A stretch of DNA of 62,981 nt, the filler included, from Rozella allomycis CSF55 (Eukaryota), in the NCBI GenBank assembly GCA_000442015.1. It is 5 parts of 5 records of this genome, joined end to end, with 100 filler letters (N's around TTAATTAATTAA, not from the genome) between each part and the next. Parts side by side here need not be neighbours in the genome. Positions count along the whole stretch, not along the records: positions 1 to 29,999 come from KE560973.1; 4 more parts are not named here. One strand, given 5' to 3'. Under the pieces are notes generated by a model, which saw nothing but the letters and a program-made list of their open reading frames with translations, had not been told where the DNA came from and made no database searches. The stretch's first letter is position 1. Each line of letters opens with the position of its first letter. Below are positions 10,083 through 15,749 of this stretch, in pieces. The translations under genes were made by a program, and so were the position numbers.

Positions 10083-12732
10083 ATGAAATTTTTTTTCCTT
10101 TTGAGCTTTTTCTTGATCGTAGTCTTGTGTGAAGGGGAATTGGAAGAAATAGATAAGGAAGTAGTTAAAAGAGAGCTTATACCAGGGTGGAATTTTATTG
10201 GCAAAAGTTATGATGGGTCGAAAGGCTTTGGATTTTTTGAAAATACCAGGAAGAATTTGTTCAGATTAACAGAGGAAGCCAGTAGATTTCAAGAGTTTTC
10301 TGTCCCCGATGACTTGTTGGCGGTACCAATTTTCTCGTCAGGGTCCAATACGCATGTTTATATGTCCCAGGAGGAGTTCAGCAGGGAAGTGAGCAAGTCA
10401 GTCTCTGCTAGTGCATCTGGATCGGTTTTCGGGTGTAGCTTTGGATTTACAGCTGATTATTCAGATGGAGGAAAAAGTTCTTCAAACAAGTAATGAAACT
10501 TAATGCCTTGTAATCAGGGAGAGATATATTGCTGCTTATGATATAAAAACCAGACTTTATCATTTAAGACTGGCACCCAAATCATTTGATCAGGCTCATG
10601 AAGATTTTCGTACATGGGTTGAAGATATGCATTCTGAAATTAGTAAAGAGGCAGATGGCTCAATTACATCTTTATTAAAAAAATTTTATCAGAAAATGTA
10701 CGTGTTTTATAGGAGTTATGGTACTTTTTATGTAATTTCAGCGGATCTTGGTGGGAGATTAATTGTGGAAGTTGAGAAAGACAAGGAAGAAAAAACAAGT
10801 GAAAAAAATGTTAAAATAGCTGCGTCGGCATATTTTAAATCATCATTTGGAAGTGGATCCATGGAATACGCAAACAGCAAGTCAGAATCTTCAAAATCGT
10901 TTAGTGAGAATGCTTCCATAAGATATCGTGCTATTGGCGGTGACCCTGAAAGTGCCAAAATGATAACAGGTTTAAATGGCGACCCTCGTGATGAAGTTTT
11001 AAAGAATGGGTTTATTAAATGGTTGAGCACAATTGAATATCATCCTGCTGTTATGGATTTTACTTTAAAACCGATCTATGAGATAATTCCAGAAAGCCGG
11101 TTCAGAATGTTGAAGACTTTAATGAAGCTTTCTAGTGACATGTTTAATGCCGGTGTTCCCTTGTTAGGAATATCTGATTTTGTAGTTTCACCGGGAAGAG
11201 ATTACTTTTCCAGCAATATCTATTTAGAAAAGGCTGGAGAAGGGTACTTAAAATTTGATGCGTTAATTTACGATAATTTAGAAATTCTCTTTGCTATCGT
11301 TCCACAAGAACCGATATTGAAAATAAGGTTGGGGGTTTATGGATCGTCATACGAAGTTTGTACCTACTTATCTGGAAAGCAAAAATGTGATTTATATCAA
11401 ATTGAAAGTTTTAAAGCCAGCAAAGGATTTTTGCAGCATTATGGAATCCATTTGAAAGATTCAACTATTATCATTACGAAAGAAAGTGAAATATCAAAAA
11501 TAAATGCCGCCCTAAATGATGGAAGGGCCTTATTTGTTGATCTGACTACTCATGAAGAGTTTCTTAAAGAGCTTAAATACATCGGGTTCGCTGTTTCTGG
11601 CAATGGTATGGCGACCACACTTCTAAATGTGAATCTTGGCACTGTAAGGGATGAGTTAAAGTATGAATCGGATAAAGACATTGAAACCTGCGCGACGTTA
11701 AAAAGGAGAATCAAGAAAAAGGAGTTTAAATCGGAAGAAGAGCATTATTTAAAGATCAAGGGTATATATGTCAGAGTTACTTGTTTAAATATGGACACCC
11801 CTGATCCTATCGAATACATTGACGTCAACTCTGTTAATGGAGCTCTTGTGACTAAACAAGATGCTTTAAGCATCACCTTTTCAAAGCTAAGGTTTTTCCC
11901 CAAATATAGCGCGATTGATTTATGTGATGTTACATACGCTAGCAGAAAAGATCCCAAGAATCCAATTTATCCCGGCGTGTTACGAATCAGACAAGACGGA
12001 GATGTAGAATCTGCAGACGTGTCCATTGAATTAAAGCATGCTTTTAAATTTGCTTCTTCGATTTCTGAAAATTCTAATCGCTATAATCTTGATGGAAAAA
12101 TGCTTATTTCAGACCGACCAGTTGTAAATGGCGGCAACAAGATATATTTCAAAACCCCCGGAACAAAAGAACTCGTTGGTGAAATTTGGTATGGAAACCC
12201 GATTTTATCGATCAAAATTTCAAAAGAACTGAGCAAATGTGAAACAAGCGACATTAATTACATTGGATCCTTAAGGCAATATAAAGCCATGAATGTTACT
12301 ATAAGAAATCAATATCTTAAAATCAAAAAACTTTCTCCATTCTTGGACGGTGAAAAGAATTGCCCAGATGGGAAATCTGTTTTTTCTATGACTGACACTA
12401 AAAACCCCCAAATTGAGTACAACGAAGAGGCCTCATCCATTGATACGCTAGTTTTATCCGTCAAATTTCCTGTAAGCTCCATGTACCTTTTTAGTTTTGA
12501 GATGAATGAAAAAGAAACTAAAAATGTTGACCAGTATAAATTTCGCATTCTCGTTGATGGAAATGACATGGGTATCAAAAGGCAAGAGTGCGAAAACAGG
12601 CCTGGAAAAGTCGCATGTAAAATTATTCCTGGAACTTTGATTCCCTGTGGTAGGAGAATGGTCCATATCATTGCTGCTTCTGCAGTAGAAATTTCCAATG
12701 ATTTCACTCTAAAAATCGGTGCGATTCAATAA
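10083..12732 (+). CDS. Secreted MACPF perforin-like protein A (~873 aa): signal peptide, MACPF, FAMeT-like beta-sandwich, GON-like, CBM-like; intron 10490-10517
   Basis: Signal MKFFFLLSFFLIVVLC; IPGWNFIGKSYD; YGTFYVISADLGG signature variant; two Ser/Gly-rich amphipathic TMH segments; IGGDP; the 28-nt GT-AG intron joins ORFs 10026-10493 and 10627-12732 in frame. Confidence 0.88.
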
Positions 12733-12957
12733 ATAAATCGTTTTATTATATTATTATTAAATCATTTTCAAATATTATTACAATAAACAACTACCGAAAG
12801 TGGATTATTTTTTAATTTACTTTAACGCTTGTTTCCGTATTGAGAGGATTTGATGTCAGCTTTCCCCGGATAAATTCCTCAAATAAATACCCCTCTGTCT
12901 ATTCACAGATTATTTAGTTATTTCATCATAATAAAAGATATTTTAAATAAACGATAT

Positions 12958-15749
12958 TTATTTTGGAAAATGCACTGACAAAGCAAAAGAAGTAAATCTG
13001 AATTGGCTTACATTACTAAACGACAATTTCAACTTGTGAACTCCGCATGGAATAATTTCTTGTAATTTCTGAACGTATCTGTCATTGTTATAAATGGCGT
13101 TTGTTAAAGTAACGTCATCAATTTTAGCTTCAATGAGTGCGCTACCTTCCATAACAAAAGACAGCTCGTATAGAGATGTATAAGGAATATCAACAAGGTA
13201 TGTTAAAGACGTCCTATCCAAATCAGTCACATATGATTTTCCATATTTAGTGATTTGGGAAACCTCGCCACTGGCAACATGATACATAGATGAATCAACC
13301 TGAACATTAAAGGAACCACCAGGACAACGAGAATAAGAAAAATCTTTTTCTCCAAACTTAACATTAACAATTGCTGATTGTTCTTTTAGTTCTTTTAATA
13401 AAACTTTTACGGCTTTCTTTGAGGAACTGTACTCATGAAACTTGGTGCACTGTGCCAAGAAATCATAATGATACGACAGATAAGCACTTCCATACCACGA
13501 TTCTAAATGTTTTCCATTCTTTGAATCAACGTTTTCAATAACTTTGACTTTTGACCCTTTCTCTATTTCACCATGAGATCCATAGATGGAATCACCACGT
13601 TGAATAAATCCATTCCACTTATCATCAAAAACTAAAAAGTCTGGCAATTCGATTTGGGCGCTAAGCTGAGTGCCTTTATCATATCCGTAATTGTGACTAA
13701 CAATAACCCCTGGTGGAATGCTGGACTCATTGCCAGGGTCACACAAATCAATAATCATCTCTTTCGGATATATTCTGAGCTTCCAAGAATTGCTTTGTTC
13801 AGTTTTAGAAGATCCTTCAATGCGTGAACCGAAATTGCTTTTCTTGTCCAACTTTAAATACTCGTAGACACTTCCGTCGTCCTGAGGAACGCAAGTAACT
13901 GAAACTTCAATACCCCACCACATCAAAGTTTCATCCCATGGCTTTATACTCTTTTTACCCTTGTCTTCGCATGTTTCAATAGCAATCTGACCACGTCTCG
14001 GCATGCCTTGACTGGTTTTCACATTAACAATACTAGTAGAAACATATGAGTTTCCTTGAAAAGCGAAATACTTTATTTTGTTGAGGATGTCTTTGTAATC
14101 TGTGAGTCTCTTGAATACAGTATTTTCTCCAACAGTAATTGTCAGCTCCTCTCCGTTATAAATGTTTATTCTATATTGCAAAATAAAAAAAGGCCTACTT
14201 GAAGTCAGAATAAATATCTTTAGGCAAATTCAAGTTTAGGTCACCGTTGAGAATCTTGCCGTGTTCACTCTCATCCAAAAAGAGTTTAAAAGTACTGCTT
14301 TCAAGACCAAATTTAATTATTAGCAGTGGTGATTGGGGAACCGACGCGAAATGTACAGTTATAGATTCAGATACCATGGCACTAAAAGTAACTTGACCGC
14401 TACCAATTTCAGGAATGGTAAAACTGGAACTCCAACTTGGCGGATATCTTGGAATGAGTTCATGGACTAATAATAATCATTTATATGATGTACTTTGAGT
14501 CCCTGGAGGAATTTTTTGAAGATAAAATTCATGAGCCAATTTCATCAAGGTGCGCATGTTGTCCCAGTTCATTTTCTTCGATTCTTTGGCAGATTTAGTG
14601 TCTATCTCTGGCGAAAGTTGGACTAATAAAAATTATTTATATGCTATACCTGGAGTCCCCGAAGGATCTTTTTGAGTACGCATGTTGTCCCAATCACTCT
14701 CAACTGGCAAAAGCTGGAATAATGGAACAATTTTAAACCCTGAAATATTTGGTTTAAATTTAACCGTCTTTAACCAATGATTAAATGACCTAGTCAAATC
14801 CTCATCCATATTGACCATCAAGGCAGAAAGAGGATCTCCACCAAAATGAGTAACTTTGGCCACACTTTGTTGAGTGAACTTTTTACTAGCTTTTGAATCT
14901 GAACGCGACGCCGATACACCTCCACTACCAAACCAAGAGGAAACTTGCACTGAGAATGCTTGTGACACTTCTTCCCTTTCAGCTTCACTATCAATAAACG
15001 TAGAAACTTCTACAAACACCGAACCACCCATCACAGCTTGTTTGACATAATGAGTACCATAATCCGTAAAGAGGGAATAGAAATCACCATAGAGTTCAGC
15101 AATACAATCAGTAGCAGTCTTTGATTTACATTTGGTGGATTTTTCATATAATGCTTGGAGTGCGTCTCTATATCCCTTTTCAGCATCCAAAAATCCATGA
15201 GGATGCATATGAAGTTCAAATAACTCGCTATGAGCTTCGAAAACATTGTAAACAATACTTTTTTGCGACTCTTTAGAAGAAGATGATTCATGCGAAGCTG
15301 AAACCTCAACGCTAACTCCAAAACACCCACCTCCACCTTCACCACTAACACGCTCGCTTAAACTCTTCTTAAACTCAGTTTCGGATTTAAAAGAACGACT
15401 TTCTGCTTTTGTTCTCCATAGGCCATAGGCGTCACTATTTTTCAACAGAGTTTAGGAATTACACATTTGATGGAACGAGGTAGTTTTGATTAAATATATA
15501 ATCTTCTGATCCTTCTATCCTCTTTTTGAATAATGGCTGTCTTATGTTATCATATGTTCCGTAGTTATTGCTTGCGTCATAACCCATCCCCACAAAGTCT
15601 GCTCCAGGAACTACTTTCAAGTCCAACGTTTTTAAACGGTGCTGAAACTCTACATTTACTTTAATTTCAATTCCAGTGTTTGTATTTGAGATTGTGTCTG
15701 CACACAGAACGGCGTTTCCCCATAAAAAGACGACAAGGAAAAAAATCAT
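12958..15749 (-). CDS. Secreted MACPF perforin-like protein B (~893 aa), same architecture as A; introns 15435-15462, 14623-14649, 14467-14493, 14171-14198
   Basis: Signal MIFFLVVFLWGNAVLCA; VPGADFVGMGYD; canonical YGTHYVKQAVMGG; FGGDP; four 27-28 nt GT-AG introns give one continuous frame; colinear with gene A (DLCD, IPCG and W-Y-G motifs). Confidence 0.88.

Follow-up and report, generated by a model that had tools for sequence, protein, structure and literature searches.

Paired, putatively secreted MACPF proteins of Rozella allomycis as candidate pore-formers acting on host membranes

The compact-genome parasitic fungus Rozella allomycis CSF55 carries, in a 62,981-nt stretch of DNA analysed here (the window), two convergent genes, A on the plus strand and B on the minus strand, whose products join a MACPF domain to a lectin-shaped module and appear to be secreted. 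We put at roughly 0.5 the probability that both are secreted pore-formers aimed at membranes of the host (Allomyces), a reading that leaves their stoichiometry open. The parts follow one another in the same order in each protein: a putative signal peptide and a MACPF domain with two Ser/Gly-rich transmembrane hairpin (TMH) regions come first, followed by a beta-sandwich of galectin fold, a Cys-rich region that starts GON-like, and a further beta-sandwich at the C-terminus. The bare MACPF assignment is already in the databases, since UniRef labels both proteins 'MACPF domain-containing protein'. What is new here is a second A/B pair in the genome, the galectin fold after the MACPF domain, the GON-like Cys-rich region, an architecture found only in rozellid-type sequences, and nearest outside relatives of bacterial type. 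We call the pair in the window A1 and B1 and the second pair A2 and B2 wherever they have to be told apart.

MACPF domains oligomerise and refold their two helical clusters into pore-lining beta-hairpins, and an accessory domain C-terminal to them usually gives membrane or receptor binding. That both proteins belong to this family, as the original prediction for the locus had proposed, is borne out by the Pfam profile PF01823, which matches exon 2 of A with 78.5 bits (E 1.1e-21) and exon 2 of B with 68.8 bits (E 9.3e-19), well above the cut-off of 21.5 bits; the other four of the six pieces of A and B scanned against Pfam gave no family. Five of the six members of an alignment match PF01823, the sixth being the C-terminal part of A1 alone. 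The fungal MACPF-like profile PF22693 reached 13.8 bits in B exon 2, below its cut-off of 27.5, and gave no match in A. The MACPF signature, Y/W-G-T/S-H-F/Y-x6-G-G, is present in exact form in B1 (YGTHYVKQAVMGG) and with Phe for His in A1 (YGTFYVISADLGG). Its YGT..GG motif is invariant, together with the MACPF glycines G68, G78, G140 and G141, in all 25 aligned sequences.

Structure prediction covered the 737-aa exon 2 of A, modelled with AlphaFold2 from a 25-sequence alignment; exon 1, which holds TMH1, lies outside the model. The mean predicted local distance difference test (pLDDT) score is 67.7 overall and about 80-95 in the MACPF part (residues 1-210). This part adopts a MACPF fold, which is characterised by a bent central beta-sheet with a helical cluster (TMH1, TMH2) on either side. 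Solved pore-formers are its closest structural matches: Foldseek against the PDB placed GNIP1Aa, perforin, Plu-MACPF, Mpf2Ba1, MPEG-1 and C6 first (E 6.5e-9 to 1e-5), with TgPLP1 and astrotactin-2 among the further matches, and VIA-align gave Z scores of 10.5-11.4 for GNIP1Aa, Plu-MACPF, Mpf2Ba1 and perforin, the bacterial proteins among them at 19-21% identity. A profile of the family compared with PDB sequences ranked GNIP1Aa (9e-13) and Plu-MACPF (4.3e-12) before C8beta (5e-9) and TgPLP1 (1.7e-8), and pleurotolysin B came far behind (0.04). Judged by sequence and fold, the MACPF core is nearest the bacterial Plu-MACPF/GNIP1Aa/Mpf2Ba1 type, also close to C8beta and TgPLP1, and far from basidiomycete PlyB.

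Several features of the two proteins had been described beforehand in terms that hold in part. The TMH segments were said to be Ser/Gly-rich and alternating; the composition stands, with 42-57% Ser, Gly, Ala or Thr in these regions vs 26-28% in the whole protein. The alternation stands for one segment: in a simple beta-periodicity test against 1000 shuffles, strict hydrophobic/polar alternation was notable only in TMH2 of A (32 of 1000), the other three segments giving 130-466 of 1000. Signal peptides had likewise been claimed for both proteins. The most hydrophobic 19-aa windows begin at residues 1-5 of A and of B (Kyte-Doolittle 1.9-2.0), and past the first 30 residues no such window exceeds 1.2 in either, so that there is no other transmembrane-like segment; the N-terminus of B2 is also the most hydrophobic stretch of its protein. 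These hydrophobic N-termini fit a cleaved signal peptide without a membrane anchor, and because no other hydrophobic segment follows we read A and B as probably secreted and unanchored.

Three colinear C-terminal domains were the third such feature, and the first of them is confidently modelled. Directly after the MACPF domain, the position that the membrane- or receptor-binding domain takes in perforin, PLP1 and Plu-MACPF, the A1 model (residues 220-375, pLDDT about 85) forms a beta-sandwich that superposes on the galectin GRIFIN (5nld_A) with Z 13.9 and a root-mean-square deviation of 2.3 A over 128 of 136 residues in a VIA-align search of 48,161 chains. The eight top rows of this search are all galectin domains (Z 13.9-12.6, 2.3-2.9 A, 127-134 residues), the galectins matched being GRIFIN and galectin-4, -8, -9 and -10; other ConA-like lectin and carbohydrate-binding module folds score slightly lower (Z 10-12.5). 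Foldseek gives template modelling scores of 0.67-0.73 of the target (galectin-10, 0.70). The fold is common with galectins, but identity to them is 4-10%: Pfam galectin gave no match to the family at E up to 1, and the canonical beta-galactoside-binding motifs, H-x-N-x-R and W-x-x-E-x-R, are absent from A1, A2, B1 and B2, the A1 domain having no Trp at all. We therefore call this domain lectin-shaped.

Behind it, the GON profile PF08685 matches A1 with 24.1-25.1 bits (cut-off 22.6), a weak match of partial length that covers only positions 3-48 of the 199 in the profile and is seen in two of six members (best E 1.6e-7). Five Cys of the Cys-rich region, in the C-terminal half of the proteins, are invariant in the aligned A1, A2, B1 and B2 rows, as expected of extracellular domains. 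Model confidence is moderate at residues 390-470, mostly below 50 at 470-640 and about 68 at 642-737, so the last domain of roughly 95 residues is a beta-sandwich of middling confidence and the part between is poorly modelled. An AlphaFold2 model of the C-terminal 349 aa of B1 was unusable (pLDDT 36.5), and with ESM Atlas features A1 residues 385-737 scored no better than chance, at most 0.83 (C1q clusters).

The gene models behind these proteins, together with their parts, are as follows.

10083-12732, plus strand: gene A (A1, O9G_004317), one intron, 873 aa, stop codon 12730-12732
10083..10489, plus strand: exon 1 of A, signal-peptide-like N-terminus and MACPF start including the TMH1 region; ATG at 10083, GT donor at 10490; N-terminus identical to that of the public protein P0001
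10490..10517, plus strand: intron of A, 28 nt, GTAATG...CAG, phase 2; its splicing restores the frame and agrees with annotated P0001
10518..12732, plus strand: exon 2 of A, 737 codons and stop, the remaining MACPF part and then the C-terminal domains (Pfam match, gene model)
10546..11100, plus strand: MACPF core of A, exon 2 residues 10-194 (Pfam E 1.1e-21); the folded MACPF part of the model is exon 2 residues 1-210
11158..11661, plus strand: exon 2 residues 214-381 of A, predicted beta-sandwich of galectin fold (pLDDT about 85, fold matches)
11686..12438, plus strand: middle region of A, rich in Cys; the first 50 or so residues match the start of the GON domain (PF08685, weak)
12442..12729, plus strand: predicted beta-sandwich of eight strands at the C-terminus of A (exon 2 residues 642-737), of middling confidence (pLDDT about 58-79), without a fold match
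12733..12957, no strand: AT-rich spacer of 225 nt that separates the stop codons; AATAAA-like words occur on either strand (sequence)
15749-12958, minus strand: gene B (B1, O9G_004318), four introns, 893 aa, stop codon 12960-12958
15463..15749, minus strand: exon 1 of B, signal-peptide-like N-terminus and N-terminal MACPF part (gene model, hydrophobicity)
14650..15434, minus strand: exon 2 of B, MACPF core with TMH1 and TMH2 regions and the exact YGTHY-x6-GG motif (Pfam match at about 15304-14696, E 9.3e-19)
14494..14622, minus strand: exon 3 of B, arisen by local tandem duplication (shared 14-nt word, similar introns)
14199..14466, minus strand: exon 4 of B, start of the domain homologous to the galectin-fold domain of A (alignment with A)
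12958..14170, minus strand: exon 5 of B, last part of the jelly-roll domain, followed by the Cys-rich region, the beta-rich C-terminal part and the stop (alignment with A)
15462-15435, 14649-14623, 14493-14467 and 14198-14171, minus strand: introns of B, 28, 27, 27 and 28 nt (gene model)

The rebuilt models give the same figures as the original prediction, which had described two intact spliced genes of 873 and 893 aa converging on 225 nt between their stops in a probably parasitic fungus with a compact genome, deeply diverged and with different intron positions. The divergence, too, is as described: BLASTP aligns A with B colinearly across nearly their full length at 211/885 identities (24%, E 4e-49), and none of B's four introns coincides with A's single one in the protein alignment. 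All five introns of A and B measure 27-28 nt and begin with GTA, so short and uniform a set being unusual for a fungus. An RNA run with the species label placed nothing on 10000-15800 and thus speaks neither for nor against expression or splicing. The window as a whole has 16 single N, plus ten runs of 44 N, and 10083-15749 is free of them; N positions include 17154, 30000-30099, 33243-33342, 44899-44998 and 59164-59263.

Public annotation differs from these models in both genes. A word-based search matched the large exon of A to O9G_004317 (P0001, 830 aa), one protein among 8000 scored candidates, and the public model differs from the 873-aa model only by two extra predicted introns, which remove 34 and 11 residues and leave one junction residue each, a net loss of 43 aa. 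The first of them excises the strand with the MACPF signature. Accordingly, we rejected both introns and take the 873-aa model as correct, because they remove invariant Gly residues of the YGT...GG motif and because an environmental relative (L001, described below) has both segments coding. This corrects the public record, in which the 830-aa A1 protein drops the signature strand. For gene B the public entries are O9G_004318 (P0005, 910 aa) and RKP20769.1 (P0110, 917 aa). Left unspliced, the 3' end of B (…SFALSVHFPK) aligns with the C-terminus of A, whereas the C-terminal tails of the two public models are unrelated and non-homologous and differ from each other; these alternative 3' ends were rejected as well. 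One of the two public models additionally drops 6 aa near the N-terminus.

Exon 3 of B1 goes back to a tandem duplication at 14467-14712 (minus strand) in which the end of an exon was copied together with its 27-nt intron. The copies have a 14-nt word in common (TGGGACAACATGCG), their introns (14649-14623 and 14493-14467) are identical at 22 of 27 positions counted by eye, and the first copy has seemingly lost about 30 nt. The outcome is an extra 43-codon exon and an insert of about 34 aa, with 'WDNMRT' twice, between the MACPF domain and the next one; A1, A2 and B2 do not have it. Skipping of this exon, or its inclusion in a longer intron, was considered and rejected: no splice sites join the 'WDNMRT' copies in frame, and both public models retain the exon.

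To place the pair within a family, HMMER was run over 1.84 billion representative sequences. It returned 108 proteins at E <= 1e-3 and only five at E <= 1e-30, namely A1, B1, two more R. allomycis proteins and one environmental fragment; the more distant matches, mostly of about 500 aa, cover the MACPF core only (query residues about 56-200). On this sequence evidence, the combination of MACPF domain, galectin fold, GON-like Cys-rich region and beta-sandwich appears only in rozellid-type sequences among the representatives searched. The two further R. allomycis proteins form the second pair:

A2, A-type: O9G_004096 / RKP19275.1 (P0109, P0002)
B2, B-type: O9G_004097 / RKP19276.1 (P0112, P0004)

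Their locus tags and accessions are consecutive, and each of two independent assemblies has them together on one contig, of 34,396 bp in one and 9,094 bp in the other. The genome thus has four family genes, with an A-type and a B-type gene adjacent twice; tblastn did not find the second pair within the window. Identity is 32% between A1 and A2 (401 bits) and 36% between B1 and B2 (338 bits), vs 24-28% across types (about 160-180 bits).

A tree inferred by maximum likelihood from 30 sequences, comprising all seven family members and 23 of the 101 more distant matches (P0008-P0030), recovers the family with support of 100/100. Within it, B1, B2 and an environmental sequence (P0007) form a B clade (95/90), and A1, A2 and another environmental sequence (P0003) form an A clade (96/95), with A1 and A2 together at 95/84; a further environmental sequence (P0006) falls weakly on the A side (84/62). 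The grouping of A1 with A2 and of B1 with B2 implies that the A/B split is older than the duplication of the pair, and the environmental fragments, which include both types, imply that it is also older than the divergence from the organisms that carry them. Both types have therefore been kept for long, which speaks against simple redundancy: A and B types are probably not redundant, and may differ in target or stage or act together. The old, maintained duplication that the original prediction had read from the two genes is in this way upheld by the tree and the pairwise scores.

A metagenome scan with a three-sequence A-type alignment added at least one relative (L001) among the 592 pattern matches listed. 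This environmental sequence of 1,462 bp (39% GC) encodes, at 117-1280, an A-type MACPF domain followed by the start of the jelly roll; it is 39% identical to A1, its frame changes fit very short introns, and it is probably from another rozellid. It is too short to reveal a neighbouring gene.

Ranked next after the rozellid family are MACPF proteins of about 500 aa, belonging to a type that bacteria of many phyla carry. For one of them (P0016), relatives at 30-36% identity occur in 14 bacterial genomes or metagenome-assembled genomes (L002-L015) of Acidobacteriota, Verrucomicrobiota, Bacteroidota, Cyanobacteria, Chlorobiales and Actinomycetota; another (P0009) had no relative in the prokaryote genome collection. 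On these sequence comparisons, made with libraries rich in prokaryotes, the rozellid MACPF core may have come from bacteria. Plu-MACPF, GNIP1Aa and Mpf2Ba1 (PDB 2qp2, 6fbm and 8b6u/8b6v), the best sequence and fold matches of this core, likewise consist of a MACPF domain followed by a beta-rich C-terminal binding domain. They are generally of about 500 aa, whereas the rozellid proteins are about 370 aa longer and add the galectin-fold domain, the Cys-rich GON-like region and a further beta-sandwich. The rozellid genes are, moreover, eukaryotic, with introns of 27-28 nt and putative signal peptides.

The closest analogues in lifestyle are the apicomplexan perforin-like proteins (PLPs; Toxoplasma PLP1, PDB 5oup/5own, and the Plasmodium PLPs), which serve egress and cell traversal. 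As is proposed for A and B, they are MACPF proteins secreted by a eukaryote that parasitises cells from within, with several diverged paralogs per genome and a beta-rich C-terminal membrane-binding domain after the MACPF domain. This domain is APCbeta, unlike the galectin-fold and GON-like parts seen here, and the kinship is no closer than the MACPF domain; we know of no gene pairs of PLPs in Apicomplexa. For the idea of a paralog pair, the analogues are stonustoxin alpha/beta and complement C6-C9, in particular C8alpha-C8beta. The complement proteins are diverged MACPF paralogs that assemble in one pore, and their genes are physically linked. The family profile matches each of C8beta, C7, C6, C8alpha and C9 (5e-9 to 0.1), but the complement accessory domains (TSP1, LDLa, EGF) are wholly unlike the rozellid ones, and only some subunits of the membrane attack complex insert fully. 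Among fungi, the known two-component MACPF pore-former is pleurotolysin/ostreolysin of basidiomycetes (aegerolysin PlyA with MACPF protein PlyB), in which a small aegerolysin takes the place of a second MACPF protein; PlyB, moreover, does not have the long C-terminal extension of the rozellid proteins.

The original prediction knew of no described system with this architecture, and we found none in the literature either. No paper tying Rozella to MACPF, the membrane attack complex or these locus tags turned up in a search that covered few subscription papers, and the Rozella papers with 'perforin' or 'pore-forming' concern other subjects, to judge by their titles and the starts of their abstracts.

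How such proteins might act can be outlined along the life cycle of the parasite. According to PMC6317583, the Rozella protoplast pushes the host plasma membrane inward on entry and lies in a compartment in the host cytoplasm, later phagocytises host cytoplasm and organelles, and finally releases zoospores that leave through a discharge pore. We propose that the wall-less intracellular parasite would secrete the MACPF protein, that the C-terminal lectin-shaped module would dock it on a glycan or membrane receptor, and that the MACPF domains would then oligomerise and refold their TMH regions into a beta-barrel pore. Its likely targets would be of host origin: the membrane that encloses the young protoplast, host organelles after their engulfment, or the host membrane when zoospores are released.

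Several observations weigh against A and B being host-directed pore-formers. A1 carries Phe where the MACPF signature has His, beta-type alternation stands out in one of four TMH segments, and the argument for secretion is the hydrophobicity of the N-termini. The galectin-fold domain is devoid of the canonical sugar-binding motifs, no reliable model covers about 250 residues in each protein, and both proteins are known here from genes and predicted structure. Some MACPF proteins, moreover, such as astrotactins and Torso-like, are not lytic.

A function of this latter kind, in adhesion, signalling or the development of wall or sporangium and without membrane insertion, would align A and B with astrotactin, Torso-like and the BRINPs, and astrotactin-2 is indeed among the fold matches; the large C-terminal half, Cys-rich and lectin-like, would lend itself to adhesion. 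We nevertheless hold it to be very unlikely, given that the closest solved relatives by sequence and fold are lytic toxins and immune pore-formers, that the TMH regions are of normal length and Ser/Gly-rich, and that the organism is an intracellular parasite. Distinctly unlikely, in our view, is also a digestive role, in which the proteins would perforate engulfed host organelles in the food vacuoles of the parasite instead of the limiting membranes of the host, comparable to MPEG-1/perforin-2, which in animal phagocytes attacks cells taken up by engulfment. MPEG-1 is one of the fold matches of A1 and a signal peptide suits the endomembrane route equally well, yet A and B have no detectable transmembrane anchor, unlike MPEG-1. 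The phagocytosis of host cytoplasm and organelles described in PMC6317583 is in keeping with such a role, and the present data do not separate a food-vacuole from an extracellular one.

A further question is whether A-type and B-type proteins are co-secreted subunits of an obligate hetero-oligomeric pore, like C8alpha/C8beta, C6-C9 or stonustoxin alpha/beta, as the original prediction had it. The twofold adjacency of the types, a split that predates the pair duplication, and the persistence of both types in environmental relatives all favour this, as do the full-length TMH regions and MACPF hinge glycines kept in both and the 47 columns of the 1023-column alignment that are conserved within each type and differ between them, next to 80 that are invariant. 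Yet tandem followed by segmental duplication yields such adjacency by default, so that no selection is needed to explain it, and any ((A1,A2),(B1,B2)) tree would give type-specific columns. Convergent genes, moreover, have no common promoter. A complex prediction of the A2 MACPF domain (P0109 residues 1-315) with that of B2 (P0004 residues 50-380) scored 0.31, 0.34 and 0.31 against a mark of 0.34, in runs without controls, and weighs on neither side. Repeated adjacency and long retention of both types lift an obligate A/B pore above the bare prior for tandem duplicates, but since duplication gives adjacency anyway and the genes share no promoter it is not established, and we regard it as tentative and rather doubtful.

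Taken to its full extent, the two-component idea would make the family a perforin of the rozellids' own, in which A-type and B-type subunits, each with a galectin-shaped targeting module, build a mixed pore that opens the host-derived membrane or lyses engulfed organelles; the A/B pair would be the functional unit, duplicated as such, and its MACPF core may be of bacterial derivation. As a whole we consider this combination unlikely.

The surroundings of the pair offer one further hint. Directly upstream of gene A, at about 8282-9507 (plus strand), lies a gene of the cellulase family glycoside hydrolase 5 (Pfam PF00150, E 5e-17), whose product starts with a hydrophobic stretch resembling a signal peptide (MANLKLSFIYLL...). 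If secreted, such a wall-degrading enzyme beside the MACPF pair might mean a small host-interaction gene cluster. An open reading frame of 407 aa at 6977-8197 (plus strand) has no Pfam family and an N-terminal signal-anchor-like segment; another, of 420 aa at 15895-17154 (minus strand), lies directly upstream of B on the same strand, has no Pfam family either, looks soluble and runs past the single N at 17154.

The lineage that lies at the base of the fungi and next to Microsporidia has in Rozella its best-studied member, and to our knowledge the molecular dealings of the naked Rozella protoplast with host membranes are not understood. A lineage-restricted family of putatively secreted MACPF proteins provides concrete candidate effectors for entry, feeding or egress. 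Its standout features are the succession of MACPF domain, galectin fold and GON-like Cys-rich region, found nowhere else, and the A/B gene pairs that occur twice in the genome. If A and B are the host-directed pore-formers proposed here, they would show perforin-like proteins in the service of an intracellular eukaryotic parasite once more, independently of Apicomplexa; and should they co-assemble, paralog-based hetero-oligomeric MACPF pores would have arisen a second time, independently of complement.

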